64,000 nt of DNA from a virus, in IMG/VR virus record IMGVR_UViG_3300029418_000119. One strand, given 5' to 3'. This document shows positions 2,964-32,035 of this stretch, piece by piece. The notes under the pieces are model-generated. The model saw only the letters and a program-made list of their open reading frames with translations. It searched no databases and had not been told where the DNA came from. Position 1 is the stretch's first letter. Each line of letters opens with the position of its first letter. The position numbers were made by a program, and so were the translations under genes.

Positions 2964-3275
2964 TTGAAAATGAATAACACTCGTAGAAAAGCTATTAAGC
3001 AGACTATTGATCGTTTTGATTCCATCCGTAAGAAGCTGGACGAGCTCGTGTCTGAGGTCGAAAGTGTAAAATCCGATGTTGAGAATATCCAGTGGGAAGA
3101 AGAAGAGTATCGTGACAACATGCCGGAGAATCTGCAGGGGAGTGAGCGGTATGACAAGGCAGACGAGGCTTGTACAAACCTGTCCGATGCTGTAGATGCT
3201 CTGGATGATATGATTGGTGCTCTGGATTTTGACTTTGGCGATGTGACCACATCTCTGGAGGAAGCGATGGAATGA
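2964..3275 (+). CDS. hypothetical acidic protein
   Basis: ORF with RBS GAGGAG upstream; highly acidic. Confidence 0.35.
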   Translation: MKMNNTRRKAIKQTIDRFDSIRKKLDELVSEVESVKSDVENIQWEEEEYRDNMPENLQGSERYDKADEACTNLSDAVDALDDMIGALDFDFGDVTTSLEEAME

Positions 3276-7735: not shown

Positions 7736-7764
7736 TTGACTTCTGTAAAGGTATCCTGTATAAT
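7736..7764 (+). promoter_or_regulatory. consensus promoter TTGACT - 17 nt - TATAAT embedding the repeated 20-bp motif (7751-7770)
   Basis: ttgact tctgtaaaggtatcctg tataat; identical 20-mer gtatcctgtataatatagct recurs at 31956-31975. Confidence 0.7.
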
Positions 7765-7807
7765 ATAGCTATGGAACGGAGCTACACTATTATAGAGGAG
7801 AAAGACT

Positions 7808-9237: not shown

Positions 9238-9243
9238 CATGCT

Positions 9244-9263
9244 AACTATATAACACAGGATAC
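9244..9263 (+). promoter_or_regulatory. copy of repeated phage promoter motif (aactatataacacaggatac)
   Basis: Identical 20-mer at 32085-32104; 15 nt upstream of pnkp start. Confidence 0.55.
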
Positions 9264-9278
9264 CTATTAGAAAGGGAG

Positions 9279-11498
9279 ATGCAGATGAGAACACTTTTAC
9301 TGTTCCGTGGAGCACCCGGTTGCGGGAAGTCCACCTATATTAAAGAGCATAATCTTGAGCAGTACGTATTGAGTGTTGATACACTTCGCCTTATGTGCCA
9401 GAGCGCACAGGAAACACCTGATGGGCAGATGGAGATTTCTCAGCAGAATGATGATGTTGTATGGGAGATGCTTTTCAAACTGCTTGAGGTGCGGATGAGC
9501 CATGGCGAGTTTACTGTGATTGATGCAACGAATTCCAAGACGGTCGAAATGAATTGTTATAAGAATCTTGCAAAACAGTATCGTTATCGGATGTATGTTA
9601 TTGATATGACGGACCTTCCGATCGAGGAATGCAAACGAAGAAACGCTCAGAGAGAATGGCTAAAGCGAGTTCCTGAAGCGGCTATTGATAAGATGTACGC
9701 TCGGTTTGCTACTCAAAAAGTTCCTTCTGGCGTGACAGTTCTTCCTTCTACTACGGATGTGATGTCCGATTTGAACTACTGCCCGAATGACTTTAACCAG
9801 TGGAAAAAGATACATATCATCGGTGATATTCATGGCTGCTATACCTGCTTGAGTGAATACCTTGGTGAGATGAAGGACGACGAGCTTTATATCTTCGTTG
9901 GTGATTATCTCGATCGTGGCATCGAAAACGTTGAGGTATTCAAGTTCTTGTGTGATGTTGTAAATAACAACCGCAAGAATGTGATCCTTTTGGAAGGGAA
10001 CCACGAGCATTGGCTGAACAAGTGGGGGCGTGATAAACCGGTTCAAAGTGAAGAGTTTGCAAACTACACTCGTCCGCAGCTCTTTAAAGCCGGTATTGAC
10101 AAGAACACTGCTCGTAAGATCTATTCCAGAGTCGGCCAGTGTGTCTACTTTGAGTATGATGGTAAGCGGTATTTCGTAAGTCACGGTGGTCTGAGCTATC
10201 TTCCTTATTTTCTTCCGTTCGTGTCTGCGGATCAGATGATTAAAGGCGTAGGCCGCTATCCTGATATACTGACCGTGGCTGAGTCTTGGGAAAAGTCGAT
10301 GCCGGATAGCTATATTCAGATCTTCGGCCATCGAAATGTACAGGATGTTCCTATTGATATGGGTCATCGGTGCTACAATCTTGAAGGCAAAATCGAGTTT
10401 GGTGGATATCTTCGTTGTGTGGAGCTTGAACACGGTCAGCCTATCAAATGCGTAGAAACCAAGAATGATGTATTCCGAAAAGAGGAGCCAAAGACTGAAA
10501 CTGCCGTTGAAATGAAAACTGAGTTCGATAACGCAGAACTTGTTAGTAAGATGCGTCAAAGCAAATATGTGTTTGAGAAGCGATTCGGAGATATTTCTTC
10601 TTTCAACTTCTCTCGTGAAGCATTTTATAAGAAGCACTGGGATGAGGTTTCTACCAAAGCAAGAGGGTTGTTCATTAACACAAAGACGAATAAGATTGTA
10701 GCTCGAAGCTATGATAAGTTCTTTGCGGTTGATGAGCGGAATGAAACGAGAATTGGAAACCTACAGAACACTTTGAAGTTCCCGGTGACTGCATATCTAA
10801 AAGAGAACGGATTTCTTGGTATCATTTCGTATGATGCAGAACAGGATGGTCTGTTCATTGCAAGTAAATCCACTCCTGATGGGCCTTTTGCAGATATGTT
10901 CCGAAAGATTCTCATGGATACGACTTCTGATGAAGATCGTAAGAATCTGAAAGAAGTTGCAAAAGAGAATGGCTCCATCATCTTCGAGGTGATTGATCCT
11001 GTGAATGATGCACATATCATCGAATATAAGAAACCGCACATTGTTTTGCTGGATATTATTGCAAATGATATGAATTTCAGTGTAATGGATTATGATGATT
11101 TGAAGCGTGTAGCCGAGAAGTGTCATCTGCAGATTAAGGAGAAGGTTAAAACCTTTGAGAACTGGAGTGAATTCTATCCTTGGTACGAAGAAGTCATGAA
11201 CGAGAACTATCTGCATCATGGTTTTGAACACGTTGAAGGCTTTGTTTTGCGAGACAGCAATAATTTCATGTTTAAGCTGAAGCTTCCGTATTATAAGCAC
11301 TGGAAGTTCTTGCGTGGTGTCATGCAGAGCGTTCAAAAACGTGGCTATTATGAAAATACCGCAAAGTTGTTTACTGCCGAGGATAACCTGTTCTATGGTT
11401 GGATGCGTGAACAACGAGAGAAAGATCAAGAGTCTTTCTGCAAGAAGGGTATTATTCAGCTGCGGAATGAGTTCTACGCAAGTCAGCAGAAGAGCTAA
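9279..11498 (+). CDS. pnkp: polynucleotide kinase-phosphatase-ligase (Pnkp-like RNA repair enzyme)
   Basis: N-terminal P-loop FRGAPGCGKST; central calcineurin-like phosphoesterase motifs GDIHGC / GDYLDRG / GNHE; C-terminal nucleotidyltransferase-ligase-like motifs KARG, HVEGFVLRD, KLKLP. Confidence 0.65.
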   Translation: MQMRTLLLFRGAPGCGKSTYIKEHNLEQYVLSVDTLRLMCQSAQETPDGQMEISQQNDDVVWEMLFKLLEVRMSHGEFTVIDATNSKTVEMNCYKNLAKQYRYRMYVIDMTDLPIEECKRRNAQREWLKRVPEAAIDKMYARFATQKVPSGVTVLPSTTDVMSDLNYCPNDFNQWKKIHIIGDIHGCYTCLSEYLGEMKDDELYIFVGDYLDRGIENVEVFKFLCDVVNNNRKNVILLEGNHEHWLNKWGRDKPVQSEEFANYTRPQLFKAGIDKNTARKIYSRVGQCVYFEYDGKRYFVSHGGLSYLPYFLPFVSADQMIKGVGRYPDILTVAESWEKSMPDSYIQIFGHRNVQDVPIDMGHRCYNLEGKIEFGGYLRCVELEHGQPIKCVETKNDVFRKEEPKTETAVEMKTEFDNAELVSKMRQSKYVFEKRFGDISSFNFSREAFYKKHWDEVSTKARGLFINTKTNKIVARSYDKFFAVDERNETRIGNLQNTLKFPVTAYLKENGFLGIISYDAEQDGLFIASKSTPDGPFADMFRKILMDTTSDEDRKNLKEVAKENGSIIFEVIDPVNDAHIIEYKKPHIVLLDIIANDMNFSVMDYDDLKRVAEKCHLQIKEKVKTFENWSEFYPWYEEVMNENYLHHGFEHVEGFVLRDSNNFMFKLKLPYYKHWKFLRGVMQSVQKRGYYENTAKLFTAEDNLFYGWMREQREKDQESFCKKGIIQLRNEFYASQQKS

Positions 11499-11507
11499 AT
11501 TAAAAAA

Positions 11508-11537
11508 TAGACATTTTATCGTGATTTTCGTTAGAAT
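11508..11537 (+). promoter_or_regulatory. candidate promoter for the tRNA array (TAGACA - 18 nt - TAGAAT)
   Basis: tagacattttatcgtgattttcgttagaat; overlapping direct repeats TATCGTGAT. Confidence 0.4.
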
Positions 11538-11615
11538 AATTAACGAAATATCGTGATATTTCTTCCTCCGAAAATGCCCTGCGCGGGGCTGACAGCCGGG
11601 AAAGACCGGCAATAT

Positions 11616-11700
11616 GGGGATATGGTGAAATTGGCAGCCACGCTTGATTCAAACTCAAGTGTCGAAAGACGTATCGGTTCAAATCCGATTATCCCTACCA
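11616..11700 (+). tRNA. tRNA-Leu (anticodon CAA), CCA encoded
   Basis: Acceptor GGGGATA/TATCCCT, anticodon loop TTCAAAC, long variable arm, T-loop TTCAAAT. Confidence 0.75.
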
Positions 11701-11900
11701 TGAAGATCAGTTGTTCTAGCTCGTTCGGGGATTGGCCGTACATTGGCGACCGGAAAGACGTCATACCGGTAAAGGACGTCAAGCCAGACAAGAAGAGAAA
11801 TAAGGTGTAAGCCGACTAGCTATCGGATAAATACTCTTCGGTTCGCCAGAAAACTAGAATGTAAAACGAATGGTTGGCTGTTTCTGATCTTCTTTTATAT

Positions 11901-11983
11901 GCGCCCGTGGTGGAATCGCAGACACAGGAGACTTAAGATCTTCTGCCAGAGATGGCGTGCGGGTTCAAGTCCCGCCGGGCGCA
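11901..11983 (+). tRNA. tRNA-Leu (anticodon TAA)
   Basis: Acceptor GCGCCCG/CGGGCGC, anticodon loop CTTAAGA, long variable arm, T-loop TTCAAGT. Confidence 0.75.
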
Positions 11984-11990
11984 TTTATAT

Positions 11991-12066
11991 CTGGGCGTAG
12001 CGAAGTTGGCATCGCACCTGTTTTGGGAACAGGGGACCGCAAGTTCAAATCTTGTCGCTCAGACCA
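11991..12066 (+). tRNA. tRNA-Pro (anticodon TGG), CCA encoded
   Basis: Acceptor CTGGGCG/CGCTCAG (one GU), anticodon loop TTTGGGA, T-loop TTCAAAT. Confidence 0.75.
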
Positions 12067-12070
12067 ATTC

Positions 12071-12130
12071 CTATTATTCCCAGCTCCTTAGCAGTAAGGC
12101 AGTAGGATGCTTCTCCAGTAAGCTGGGTAT
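12071..12130 (+). repeat. about 57-nt hairpin element, copy 1 (CTATTATTCCCAGCTC ... CAGTAG ... GTAAGCTGGGT)
   Basis: Shares conserved ends and a central CAGTAG with a copy at 12337-12392; stem CCCAGCT/AGCTGGG. Confidence 0.4.
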
Positions 12131-12134
12131 ATGA

Positions 12135-12205
12135 TGCGCCATCGCCAAGCGGTAAGGCAGAGGACTTTGACTCCTCCATCACAGGTTCGACCCCTGTTGG
12201 CGCAA
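12135..12205 (+). tRNA. tRNA-Gln (anticodon TTG)
   Basis: Acceptor TGCGCCA/TGGCGCA, anticodon loop CTTTGAC, T-loop TTCGACC. Confidence 0.7.
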
Positions 12206-12210
12206 TTTAT

Positions 12211-12292
<82 letters not shown>

Positions 12293-12336
12293 CGGTCATG
12301 AATCGTTGTTGTTCATGGTTGAACTCCTTTGACCAC

Positions 12337-12392
12337 TATTATTCCCAGCTCGCCAGTGATGGTGCAGTAGTGCTTTGTAAGCTGGGTTTTCA
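12337..12392 (+). repeat. about 57-nt hairpin element, copy 2
   Basis: CTATTATTCCCAGCTC...CAGTAG...GTAAGCTGGGT; see copy 1. Confidence 0.4.
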
Positions 12393-12393
12393 T

Positions 12394-12468
12394 GCAGCGG
12401 TCGTACAACGGCTAGTACATCAGCCTTCCAAGCTGAGGATGAGGTTTCGACTACCTTTCGCTGCTCCA
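12394..12468 (+). tRNA. tRNA-Gly (anticodon TCC), CCA encoded
   Basis: Acceptor GCAGCGG/TCGCTGC, discriminator U, anticodon loop CTTCCAA, T-loop TTCGACT. Confidence 0.65.
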
Positions 12469-12649
12469 ATCTTGTATGGGTAGGATCTTTAGCGGTCAGA
12501 TCCGGCCGCGCCTGTGCAAGATACCACCCAGAAAGGGGCTAACGAAATTATCCATGTACGTTATTCTCGGCTCGCTCGAAAGAGTGCAGCGTGCCTTTGC
12601 AAGCCGAGCATCCCAGCCTAGTGATGCCAGTTGCTAGGTTGGTTCTTAT

Positions 12650-12725
12650 GCGACTGTAGTTCAATTGGCAGAGCGTCAGATTTCCAATCTGAATGTTGCG
12701 GGATCGTCCCCCGTCAGTCGCTCCA
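12650..12725 (+). tRNA. tRNA-Gly (anticodon TCC), second copy, CCA encoded
   Basis: Acceptor GCGACTG/CAGTCGC, discriminator U, anticodon loop TTTCCAA, T-loop ATCGTCC. Confidence 0.6.
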
Positions 12726-12952
12726 CACGCAGCCCCTTACGCTGCACCGGTTACTCAGAGCCGAAAGGAACCTATATGTTACGACATGGTTGCCAAGAGT
12801 GATCATATTGGAACGCGACGTAGCTTGGATAGTGAGAATTAAATTCTGAGGTATACGGCTGGATAGCTTAATGGTAAAAGCGCTCGGAAACACCGAGAGA
12901 TGAGGTTCGATTCCTCCGCTGGCATCGCGCCGACGAAAGTCGGCGTTTGCAT

Positions 12953-13029
12953 GGGATAGTAGCTCAGTTGGTCAGAGCTGGCGGCTCATAACCGCTTGGT
13001 CGGGAGTTCGAATCTCTCCTGTCCCACCA
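12953..13029 (+). tRNA. tRNA-Met or Ile2 (anticodon CAT), CCA encoded
   Basis: Acceptor GGGATAG/CTGTCCC, G1-C72 (elongator type), anticodon loop CTCATAA, T-loop TTCGAAT. Confidence 0.75.
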
Positions 13030-13134
13030 GCCCGATAGGGCGTACATAAAACCTGCTAGAACTTTTGTTTTATAGGCGACGAAATAACATGACGTTGATA
13101 CGTCTATTATTTTTTCGCTCATTTTCTGAGTTTT

Positions 13135-13154
13135 AGCTATATAATACAGGATAC
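13135..13154 (+). promoter_or_regulatory. copy of repeated phage promoter motif (agctatataatacaggatac)
   Basis: Followed by RBS AAAAGGAGG and ATG 13166 of the methyltransferase gene. Confidence 0.55.
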
Positions 13155-13165
13155 GAAAAGGAGGA

Positions 13166-14642
13166 ATGAAAACTGAAGCATTACGGAGATATTACACAAC
13201 TTCATGGGTGGCAGATTGAACCGGTTTCCTGTATCACAGGAGGCAGTCCATGCCAAGATTTGAGTCAGGCCGGTAAACGTGAAGGTTTGGCTGGTGAACG
13301 CTCTGGATTGTTCCTTGAAATGATTCGTGTGATTACAGAAATGAGGGAGGCCACTAATGGAGAATATCCAAAATTCGCAATCTGGGAAAATGTCAGAGGA
13401 GCTTTCAGCTCAAGCAAAGGTGAAGACTTCAGATGTGTGTTGGAAAGATTTGCACGCATTGTCGAGCCAGACGTTTCAATTCCTCGACCTTCAGGGAAGA
13501 ACGGAAAGTGGGCAAAATCTGGAGCGATTTCCGGTAATGGATGGTCTATTGCATGGAGATTGTTCGACGCTAAATACTGGGGAGTCGCCCAGCGTCGCCA
13601 GAGAATCGCGCTTGTCATGGATTTTGGAGGACAACGTGCCTCAGAAATTCTATTTGAGCGCACGAGCATGTCAGGGGATTCTTGTGAGAGCATCCCGGCG
13701 TGGAAAACCTTTGCCCGAACTCCTGAAGCAAGCGTTGCTGGATATGATCGAATGGTGGAATCCAGGAACTCTGTCACAGGTGGTGCAGAAAGTGAAGGAA
13801 CAAGAAGGTCTGGAAGAGAAGGAATTGGACGAGTATTGGAGTCAGACCATCGAGAGACTTCGACTCGATGCACAGAACCTGCAGCCTACACTCTAAAAAT
13901 CCGTTCTGGATGTGAAGGTGGCGGTAAAGGCGCTCTGGTTCAAACTGAATTGAGCGCAACGATTTCTACGTTACAAGACCAGACGCTGATTTGCTTGGCA
14001 GAAAATCCCTCTTTACATAATTTAAAACAAAAGATTTCGCCGGTGGTGTTTGAGAGCCACAGTCAAGACGCTCGATACACTCAGCTGAGTGATACAAGTC
14101 CGACTTGTACTGCTCAGTGGGGAACTGGTGGCAATAATATGCCACTGGTCATTGAGAAGAAAGCCTTTGCGATGCAACGCATTGGTGAATACAAGGAAAG
14201 TGAACAGGCTAGTACGATGAAATCTCGTGATTACAAGGACGCTACTGACCTGATTACAGAAAAAGAAACGAAGAATCTACGATGGATTGTTCGCCGTTTG
14301 ACTCCTTTGGAGGATGAACGGCTTCAGGGGTTCCCTGATGGATGGACAGATATCGGTGACTGGATTGATGAGAACGAAAAGAAGCATAAAACTTCTGACG
14401 CAGTTCGTTATAAGGCACTCGGCAATTCAATCGCATTACCGCAATGGTATTGGATTTTTCAGAAGATGAAACCGTATATCGGTGAGAATCCTACTCTTGG
14501 TAGCCTCTTCGATGGGATCGGCGGCTTTCCGTTAGTATTTCAAAGCACATATGGTGAAGGTACTGCCATTTGGGGGTCAGAAATTGATAGCTTTTGCGTT
14601 GCAGTAACTAAGAAGCATTTTCCAGAAAAGCAAAGAGGATAA
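13166..14642 (+). pseudogene. C5-cytosine DNA methyltransferase, circularly permuted motif order and frame-disrupted at homopolymers
   Basis: In-frame motifs in the order III (KHYGDITQL), IV (GGSPCQDLS), VI (ENVRGAF), VIII (QRRQRIALV), TRD, IX (RRLTPLEDERLQGFPDGW), X (YKALGNSIALP), then an internal Met followed by I (LFDGIGGF) and II (SEID), then a stop. ATG 13166 is out of frame by one base at an A4 run (13169-13172). A second +1 shift at a T4 run (13622-13625) brings a protein-like frame-1 segment (YLSARACQGILVRASRRGKPLP) into the gene, ending at a stop at 13894-13896. Confidence 0.6.
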
Positions 14643-17320: not shown

Positions 17321-17331
17321 TTTTTAGCCTT

Positions 17332-17351
17332 AGCTAAGTAACACAGGATAC
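17332..17351 (+). promoter_or_regulatory. copy of repeated phage promoter motif (agctaagtaacacaggatac)
   Basis: Degenerate copy about 90 nt upstream of ORF 17441. Confidence 0.4.
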
Positions 17352-31944: not shown

Positions 31945-31969
31945 CAATTATGTGCGTATCCTGTATAAT
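31941..31969 (+). promoter_or_regulatory. consensus promoter TTGACA - 17 nt - TATAAT embedding the repeated motif (31956-31975)
   Basis: ttgaca attatgtgcgtatcctg tataat; 20-mer identical to 7751-7770. Confidence 0.65.
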
Positions 31970-32015
31970 ATAGCTATAAAAAGTCTCCATCCCGGAGGCT
32001 TAAAATTCTCTCTTT

Positions 32016-32035
32016 AGCTATATAATGCAGGATAC
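32016..32035 (+). promoter_or_regulatory. copy of repeated phage promoter motif (agctatataatgcaggatac)
   Basis: Second of three motif copies in the 170-bp region upstream of the ligase gene. Confidence 0.5.

Follow-up and report, generated by a model that had tools for sequence, protein, structure and literature searches.

In this study, we closely examined a predicted C5-cytosine methyltransferase gene in a stretch of 64,000 nucleotides from the IMG/VR virus record IMGVR_UViG_3300029418_000119. This whole stretch is called the window here; all coordinates are window positions on the + strand unless marked otherwise, and the methyltransferase frame is in phase with position 13170. The frame is open from 13170 to 14642 with no internal stop codon and holds all the motif strings quoted in a preliminary description of the locus, which had been made from the sequence alone and had proposed a circularly permuted gene. 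The frame repair assumed in that description is required nowhere inside the gene. The predicted gene and its parts are as follows (AdoMet, S-adenosylmethionine; AF2, AlphaFold2; pLDDT, predicted local distance difference test score).

13173-14642, + strand: predicted C5-cytosine methyltransferase gene with circular permutation of type B; 489 codons and a stop, probable CTG start at 13173; pLDDT above 90 for residues 1-170 and 370-489
13176-13202, + strand: motif III (KHYGDITQL), now N-terminal; aligned to M.HhaI 57-67; family consensus start MKHLGDITK
13239-13265, + strand: motif IV (GGSPCQDLS); catalytic Cys codon at 13251-13253
13386-13406, + strand: motif VI (ENVRGAF); from frame translation, M.HhaI alignment and family consensus
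13590-13616, + strand: motif VIII (QRRQRIALV); from frame translation and family consensus
13617-14291, + strand: variable region and target-recognition modules (YTLKIRSGCEGGGKGALVQ..., FESHSQDARY...GTGGNNMPLV, ...KSRDYKDATDL); low AF2 confidence
14292-14345, + strand: motif IX (RRLTPLEDERLQGFPDGW); from frame translation, M.HhaI alignment and family consensus
14409-14441, + strand: motif X (YKALGNSIALP); G417, N418 and S419 invariant, GNS at 14421-14429
14442-14492, + strand: C-terminal helix of the old protein and X-to-I linker (QWYWIFQKMKPYIGENP); M432 at 14466-14468, modelled helix 422-436
14493-14528, + strand: motif I (TLGSLFDGIGGF), the AdoMet-binding loop, now near the C terminus; aligned to M.HhaI 16-27, pLDDT 96-98
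14571-14588, + strand: motif II (WGSEID); conserved acidic residue E470, SEID at 14577-14588
14616-14642, + strand: new C terminus HFPEKQRG (14616-14639) and TAA stop (14640-14642)

Read in this single frame, the motifs follow one another as III, IV, VI, VIII, target-recognition domain, IX, X, I, and II, with I and II placed after X as had been claimed. The motifs are well conserved: GGSPCQ (13239-13256), ENV (13386-13394), and QRRQR (13590-13604) are invariant or at least 90% conserved in the family, G24, P26, C27, and Q28 of motif IV are invariant among 106 permuted representatives, and F446, G448, G451, and F452 of motif I are invariant in the family consensus (LFDGIGGF, 14505-14528). Both family profiles scored above their cut-offs, PF00145 (Pfam) with 121.6 bits against 22, in four stretches, and TIGR00675 with 119 bits against 100.65. 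A phmmer search of the PDB placed query residues 445-490 on M.HhaI 16-59 and query residues 4-90 on M.HhaI 57-136. Because both ends of the protein are placed on M.HhaI, the permuted order is shown by alignment and not just by eye. The canonical linear order from I to X is not found in the window protein, and membership of the C5-methyltransferase fold family still applies. On these sequence grounds, we consider it very likely that the gene encodes a C5-methyltransferase with a genuine circular permutation, broken between motifs II and III.

The position of the break is apparent from relatives with normal motif order. Two of them, P0365 and P0373, read KHFPEMKHLGDITK across the break (in fuller form, ...ITKRHFPEMKHLGDITKING...). 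Permuted proteins finish with ...HFPE and begin with MKHLGD, and the normal-order relatives run HFPE-MKHLGD (HFPEMKHLGD) uninterrupted. Since P0365 and P0373 read through the junction, the break lies exactly between motifs II and III, and the new initiator corresponds to a pre-existing internal Met; the seamless motif II-to-III junction that had been proposed for the two ends is thereby borne out. In M.HhaI numbering, the protein starts at the equivalent of residue 57 and ends at that of residue 59, with the old termini joined, which is the arrangement defined as type B (PMC5944983).

We found the same arrangement in many other sequences. The architecture is shared by more than 120 protein clusters (87-100% identity) in assemblies from NCBI, ENA, JGI, and Logan, on contigs of up to 430 kb. 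At least 80 loci in IMG/VR (65-100% identity) match query residues 1-490 contiguously; they sit on phage contigs of ~130 kb and ~55-60 kb, and the flanking genes differ between these groups. The cultured Faecalibacterium phages FP_Toutatis and Lelie share the IX-X-linker-I-II junction, and a megablast search of the region against GenBank phages returned short fragments only. An exhaustive HMMER search of 1.84 billion cluster representatives (50% identity) gave 28,878 matches, the best 150 of which were classified. The order IV..X..I was clear in 111 of these 150, about 20 had normal order, and identity to the window protein over matched stretches was 43-75%. Permuted representatives begin with MKH[LY]GDITK and finish with ...WASEIEEFPIAVTK.RF.., while normal-order ones begin with MTLGSLFDGIGGF. 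Protein lengths in the clade range from ~340 to 900 amino acids with a varying number of recognition modules, and the consensus retains every catalytic motif. Such enzymes had been called rare in the preliminary description, which is true only of those that have been characterized; among metagenomic sequences, the permuted clade is a large one.

The pattern of nucleotide variation was analyzed over 70 distinct sequences. Variability is highest at codon position 3 throughout 13170-13610 and 13890-14640, including the relocated motifs I and II, and in 13170-13350 and 13890-14600 it reaches 0.26-0.42 at position 3 versus 0.05-0.17 at positions 1 and 2. This shows the signature of purifying selection on the methyltransferase frame, including 13176-13259. 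Judged from its sequences, the type B clade is shown to be large, natural, and under selection in gut phages.

An AF2 model made with 15 close homologues was unusable (pLDDT 30.8), and the model used here was made from an alignment of the 106 diverse permuted sequences. It has a predicted template modelling score of 0.68, with pLDDT values above 90 for most of residues 1-160 and of 93-98 for residues 380-480 (motifs IX and X, the helix, and motifs I and II), so both catalytic halves are confidently modelled. The modelled C terminus consists of strand 442-445, helix 451-460, strand 465-469, and helix 473-482, which would be the expected beta1-alphaA-beta2-alphaB of the AdoMet-binding half. The recognition region (181-366) has low confidence; pLDDT is low for methyltransferase-frame residues ~165 to 240 and below 50 from residue 181. 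The top Foldseek matches were M.HhaI, M.MpeI, and M.HaeIII (E ~1e-8, root mean square deviation 1.4 A over 146 columns), in a comparison that depends on chain order. Since the N and C termini of canonical C5-methyltransferases adjoin, the same fold is expected from the permuted chain.

The closest normal-order relatives provide a view of the putative ancestor. P0365, P0373, and P0323 show 52-56% identity to the window protein over all matched stretches, and Corynebacterium phiCATYP2070I (L086) and a Deinococcus plasmid dcm gene (L084) are further normal-order members of its subfamily. All five share with the window protein the signature blocks TLGSLFDGxGGFPL, WASEIE, GSPCQDLS, IKEMREATNGxYP, WENVPGAFSS, and DFGGxxAxEILFE as well as a modular recognition region, and L084 and L086 also carry an open reading frame (ORF) in the +1 frame that is described below. 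They differ in having motifs I and II at the N terminus, from where the sequence runs on through HFPEMKHLGDITK unbroken. The ancestor of the permuted gene was most likely a normal-order member of this MTLGSLFDGIGGF...HFPEMKHLGDITK... subfamily. After a tandem duplication, motif X would have been fused in frame to motif I and the outer parts lost, and the internal Met already present between motifs II and III would have become the new start. This route is inferred from the sequences.

The preliminary description had also placed the ancestral start Met at the X-to-I junction, and this did not hold. M432 varies among M, I, V, and L across the family and aligns with a hydrophobic position of the C-terminal helix in normal-order relatives (RWIAERM, TRIKEAL). 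These relatives finish in a helix (...LPCVIFVLTRIKEALCRI or ...RWIAERMAAAL) and begin with MTLGSLFDG; in permuted proteins, some 10 residues link the C-terminal helix to TLGSLFDG. A position immediately ahead of TLGSLFDG is more probable for the old start.

Within the clade, a third topology was found only in P0312, P0345, and P0387 (loci L167-L170), which are complete genes with unrelated flanking genes and the order target-recognition domain-IX-X-I-II-III-...-VIII. They have the same X-I linker and a restored FPxM[KQ]HLG junction, and the nearest relatives of each are type B proteins, different ones in each case. Normal-order, type B, and type H-like members of one subfamily thus share, where permuted, the X-linker-I junction and occur side by side as the duplication-fusion-truncation model predicts; the proposal of this model in the preliminary description fits the family.

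Other departures from the linear C5 fold have different arrangements. The C5 fold tolerates chain breaks, as in M.AquI, which is made of two polypeptides split in the variable region; M.AquI has two chains, whereas the window protein comes from a single ORF with its motifs reordered. In plants, the enzymes of the DRM type are eukaryotic and RNA-directed and have the motif order VI-X followed by I-V. The catalytic domain of plant DRM2 (tobacco DRM), a permuted C5 fold with a solved structure, was among the sequence and fold matches (4onj, 7l4c), and its break point differs from that of the window protein.

The natural permuted C5-methyltransferases described so far, M.BssHII, M.Alw26I, M2.Eco31I, M.Esp3I, and M2.BsaI plus 22 from REBASE, are all of type H (Slaska-Kiss et al. 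2018, PMC5944983), in which the N terminus lies in the variable region after motif VIII and the order is IX, X, I-VIII (PMC5944983). Like the window protein, they are natural permutations of the same fold with X before I and a duplication/truncation origin. The window protein differs in that it starts with motif III, its N terminus lying between II and III (III-X, I, II), and not in the variable region with IX and X ahead of I-VIII. Type B was not found in nature in the 2018 REBASE survey, and weaker AdoMet binding was speculated to select against it (PMC5944983); no later report of a natural type B permutation was found in full-text literature searches. In the laboratory, cp62M.MpeI and cp58M.SssI, with termini between II and III, were by far the most active permutants, the activity of cp62M.MpeI being similar to the wild-type level (PMC5944983). 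These engineered enzymes and the first group of directed-evolution cpM.HaeIII variants (cited in PMC5944983) are small laboratory constructs with CG or GGCC specificity, whereas the window gene is natural and phage-borne, has a large modular recognition region, and is a member of a natural, diverse clade.

The start of the gene is less regular than its motifs. The following signals lie at the 5' end.

13133-13150, + strand: repeated promoter-like motif TTAGCTATATAATACAGG (contains TATAAT), with at most 3 mismatches
13158-13164, + strand: Shine-Dalgarno sequence AAGGAGG, conserved in related loci; 8 nucleotides before CTG 13173 and 1 nucleotide before ATG 13166
13166-13219, + strand: out-of-frame ATG with a 17-codon upstream ORF that overlaps the methyltransferase start, from frame translation

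The motif TTAGCTATATAATACAGG occurs in six copies in the window versus 0.05 expected (at most 3 mismatches), upstream of several genes (7755-7772 on the - strand, 9242-9259, 13133-13150, 17330-17347, 31960-31977 on the - strand, and 32014-32031), and is probably a phage-specific promoter; a generic sigma-70 scan made no call at the copy at 13133-13150. Just upstream of the start, a TGA (13167-13169) closes the methyltransferase frame. At the codon aligned with the family initiator Met, 46 sequences have CTG, and sister loci have GTG (21) or ATG (12). In the 46 sequences of the CTG group, the upstream ATG and the CTG are both invariant while the 4 nucleotides between them vary, and the ATG is never in frame. 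The CTG at this position is a conserved feature and not a sequencing error. Of the promoter copy, strong ribosome-binding site, and ATG that the preliminary description had seen exactly at the new N terminus, the first two are present, and the ATG is out of frame in 46 of 46 sequences. The invariant ATG at 13166 may act as a translational decoy or regulator. Slippage by +1 on the AAAA run after this ATG was considered and rejected: the run is not conserved (AACT, AAAC, AAGA, GAAA, GGAA), and the CTG is invariant.

Among 43 distinct sequences of the CTG group, the 28 codons between CTG 13173 and TTG 13260 have 6, 5, and 20 polymorphic sites at codon positions 1, 2, and 3, respectively, with 14 codons showing synonymous variants only versus 7 with amino acid variants. 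Judged by this pattern, the 28-codon stretch, which includes the catalytic Cys, is translated. We favor initiation at CTG 13173, with some reserve, on the basis of these comparisons. Located 8 nucleotides after a strong AAGGAGG and downstream of the repeated phage promoter motif, the CTG would probably give low-level translation.

Several observations weigh against an intact permuted enzyme in this lineage. The start codon is noncanonical, CTG being the only candidate, and gene callers start at TTG 13260, which shortens the protein to 460 amino acids and would remove the catalytic Cys. Two recognition modules (25 and 36 amino acids) found in relatives are lost in the window gene, motif IX reads LEDERLQ where the family has LECERLQ, and the structural comparison is order-dependent and not permutation-aware. 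Moreover, disrupted copies exist in several sister lineages (21 loci frameshifted at motif IV, poly-G shifts in Toutatis and Lelie), so the gene appears to be dispensable or switched off in some phages.

In the variable region, modules of 25 and 36 amino acids are gained or lost among relatives; compared with window positions 14030-14290, P0097, P0118, and P0107 have whole modules present or absent (25 amino acids, CVLNDQGGSVMNVSYDIVGTLRAQEHGHQP; 36 amino acids, CAGF...), which suggests modular changes of target specificity. In the 21 GTG-start loci (L038, L042, L044-L047, L050-L058, L063-L066, L068, and L069), a 4-nucleotide insertion puts a TAG directly after GGSPC in motif IV (~3070-3090) with the rest of the gene running on intact in a different frame, which may reflect either a frameshift that is conserved or an inactivation that is shared. 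Stop-codon recoding, with TAG or TGA read as sense, was rejected for this L038-type TAG and for the TGA upstream of the window gene: the frames beyond are noncoding, and no suppressor tRNA is present. In FP_Toutatis (L171, ~1790-1800), a run of 9 G interrupts the gene; there, the N-terminal part enters the +1-frame ORF described below (annotated as gp14, 201 amino acids), and the remainder is annotated as gp15. Lelie (L172, ~1093-1106) has 14 G at the same site, and 10 IMG/VR relatives have 7 G, in frame (L067, L070, L071, L073-L078, and L080). The tract, which is absent from the window gene, looks like a candidate phase-variable methyltransferase switch; the length differences may also be homopolymer sequencing errors. 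Finally, L036, L037 (3001-4992), and P0094 carry an insertion of ~175 amino acids with an HNH_3 domain (PF13392), in frame inside motif IX (between RLQGFP and GWTDIG), which recalls the homing ShiLan element of an actinophage methylase (PMC11855218).

With a CTG in place of ATG or GTG, gene calls from TTG 13260, module deletions relative to P0097, P0107, and P0118, and clear disruptions in related lineages, the window-lineage gene could be a decaying or silenced remnant that yields no active enzyme or only the TTG 13260 product without the catalytic Cys. We regard this as unlikely. The bases around the CTG vary, but the CTG itself is the same in all 46 sequences and stands at an ideal 8-nucleotide distance from AAGGAGG; the codons between CTG and TTG carry the excess of synonymous and third-position changes reported above; and all catalytic motifs are intact, with no internal stop in 43 distinct sequences.

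The methyltransferase gene also contains a second ORF, whose features are listed here.

13357-13896, + strand: overlapping ORF in the +1 frame, 179 codons with its own ATG; AGGGAGG with a 6-nucleotide spacer upstream, TAA at 13894-13896
13612-13757, + strand: conserved core of the +1-frame ORF (LSWILEDNVPQKFYLSARACQGILVRASRRGKPLPELLKQALLDMIEWW), where the methyltransferase frame enters a low-confidence linker after DFGGQRASEILFE

The core at 13612-13757 is better conserved in the +1 frame than in the methyltransferase frame. In 13620-13757, position 1 of the main frame, which is position 3 of the alternative frame, is the most variable (0.18-0.27), and main-frame position 3 is near invariant (0.02-0.05). 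In the CTG group, the alternative frame has 22 codons with synonymous variants only versus 11 with amino acid variants, compared with 4 versus 30 in the main frame, and LSWILEDNVPQKFYLSARACQGILVRASRRGKPLPELLKQALLDMIEWW is nearly unchanged in loci whose methyltransferase frame differs widely. Over the 87 codons upstream of the core, 78 loci together have 1 stop in the +1 frame versus ~170 expected and 172 in the +2 frame; elsewhere in the same genes, the +1 frame has 2.2-2.9% stops. Conserved start signals come in two types, one of gut phages, actinobacteria, and Deinococcus (AGGGAGG-N6-ATG, inside EMREATNG) and one of proteobacteria (AAGGAG-N7-ATG, inside KFKEWPD). The motif VIII Gly codon is GGA in 44 of 49 loci versus 29% GGA at other Gly codons of the same genes, a choice that keeps Glu or Asp in the alternative frame. 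The second frame is thus open, has its own start signals, and bears the marks of its own purifying selection, as is expected of a same-strand overlapping gene. The low model confidence of methyltransferase residues ~165 to 240 is consistent with a linker that would tolerate such an overlap.

The alternative peptide is widely distributed. By tblastn, it was located under genes annotated as dcm or dmt in 525 plasmid records. All six plasmid loci inspected (L081-L086, from Xenorhabdus, a P1-like Escherichia coli plasmid, Brucella, Deinococcus, Corynebacterium, and Bifidobacterium) carry a gene with normal motif order and have the peptide in its +1 frame, immediately behind motif VIII. With two exact patterns, 511 loci were retrieved from GTDB species genomes; the same +1 arrangement holds in each of the 80 that were fetched (L087-L166; from Alpha-, Beta-, and Gammaproteobacteria, Acidobacteria, Planctomycetes, Saccharibacteria, Nitrospirae, and others). 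The alternative ORF had no match in Pfam, NCBIfam, or the PDB and only a weak one in PHROGs (phrog_16143). In a set of 5.8 billion proteins, 1,736 short hypothetical proteins match it, the best 120 of which all lack PF00145. Because P0134 is chimeric, its PF26675 label was set aside as uninformative. Full-text literature searches found no paper on the nested ORF. From these sequence comparisons, a nested, probably independently translated +1-frame gene seems likely, a view that we hold with moderate confidence. If this reading is true, the nested gene would be ancient and would follow motif VIII at a constant position in the C5-methyltransferase genes found on phages, plasmids, and chromosomes in Proteobacteria, Actinobacteria, Deinococcus, Acidobacteria, Planctomycetes, Saccharibacteria, and gut Firmicutes phages; it would have survived the circular permutation of its host gene; and the poly-G tract of the Faecalibacterium phages (G7, G9, or G14) could switch the N-terminal methyltransferase part into the +1 frame. 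The nested product could be a partner or regulator of the methyltransferase.

Given the coding periodicity in 13620-13757, which belongs to the alternative frame and not to the methyltransferase frame, the locus might mainly make other products, either the +1-frame protein or an N-terminal fragment fused to it as annotated for FP_Toutatis gp14; in both gp14 and P0249, the N-terminal part is continued in the alternative frame. However, the methyltransferase frame is open and selected on either side of the overlap and through it, keeping DFGG..EILFE with no stops in ~160 loci, and the conservation of motifs IX, X, I, and II would otherwise have no reason. Both readings are compatible, the nested gene being an addition and not a replacement, and we consider such a replacement of the methyltransferase very improbable. 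Two related ideas were rejected. A shift into the alternative frame and back as the sole product conflicts with a methyltransferase frame that is open and partly conserved through the overlap. In-frame presence of the alternative peptide within ordinary methyltransferases conflicts with its +1 position in the 6 plasmid and 80 genome loci, with P0249 as the single exception. In P0249, the alternative peptide is in frame with both the N-terminal methyltransferase part and the downstream part, and motif VIII is lost; the sequence would be a natural double-frameshift variant or an assembly error.

That the permuted order is an assembly or sequencing artefact, with a collapsed tandem repeat or a join across a duplicated gene hiding a conventional I-to-X gene, can be practically dismissed: no support for it was found beyond the oddity of the out-of-frame ATG at the gene start, whereas the identical order recurs in the >120 protein clusters, 80 IMG/VR loci, 111 diverse representatives, and two cultured phage genomes, between phage groups of ~130 kb and ~55-60 kb with different flanking genes, and the codon-position statistics indicate selection on the fused frame across both junctions.

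We infer that the window methyltransferase is catalytically active. Motifs I and II, at the C terminus after a linker of ~10 residues, would supply the AdoMet-binding strand-helix-strand. Its likely role would be methylation of phage DNA against host restriction, and a solitary protective methyltransferase is the best reading of the enzyme: a scan of ORFs of at least 367 amino acids (replication and repair genes), which did not profile small neighbors, revealed no nuclease partner of the kind adjacent in type II restriction-modification systems. Upstream of the gene lies a tRNA cluster and downstream are small unassigned ORFs, and the final methyltransferase codons also serve as the ribosome-binding site for the next gene (ATG 14645). 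With a Pnkp/RNA ligase gene, eight tRNA genes, DnaB, RecJ, DNA polymerase, an exonuclease V-like helicase, DNA ligase, NrdD, and GroEL, the window is a replication and repair region of a large gut phage. At 9279-13029, a polynucleotide kinase-phosphatase/RNA ligase gene (739 amino acids) is followed by the tRNA genes (11616-13029; Leu x3, Pro, Gln, Gly x2, and Met), an arrangement suggestive of a module for tRNA supply and repair immediately upstream of the methyltransferase.

For the annotation of such genes, the locus has practical consequences. Gene callers shorten the gene to the downstream TTG, and a rule that expects motif I near the N terminus would presumably miss enzymes of this kind. 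The nested +1-frame gene, if translated, would rank among the same-strand overlapping genes with the widest conservation in bacteria and phages and would bring a further component into a class of DNA-modification genes that is very common. Among the textbook test cases for how topology evolves by duplication and truncation is the circular permutation of C5-methyltransferases, for which only type H had previously been seen in nature, with the experimentally best topology, type B, reported missing (PMC5944983). With the type B clade of gut phages, the duplication model becomes directly testable on natural intermediates and in culturable systems, the Faecalibacterium phages Toutatis and Lelie.

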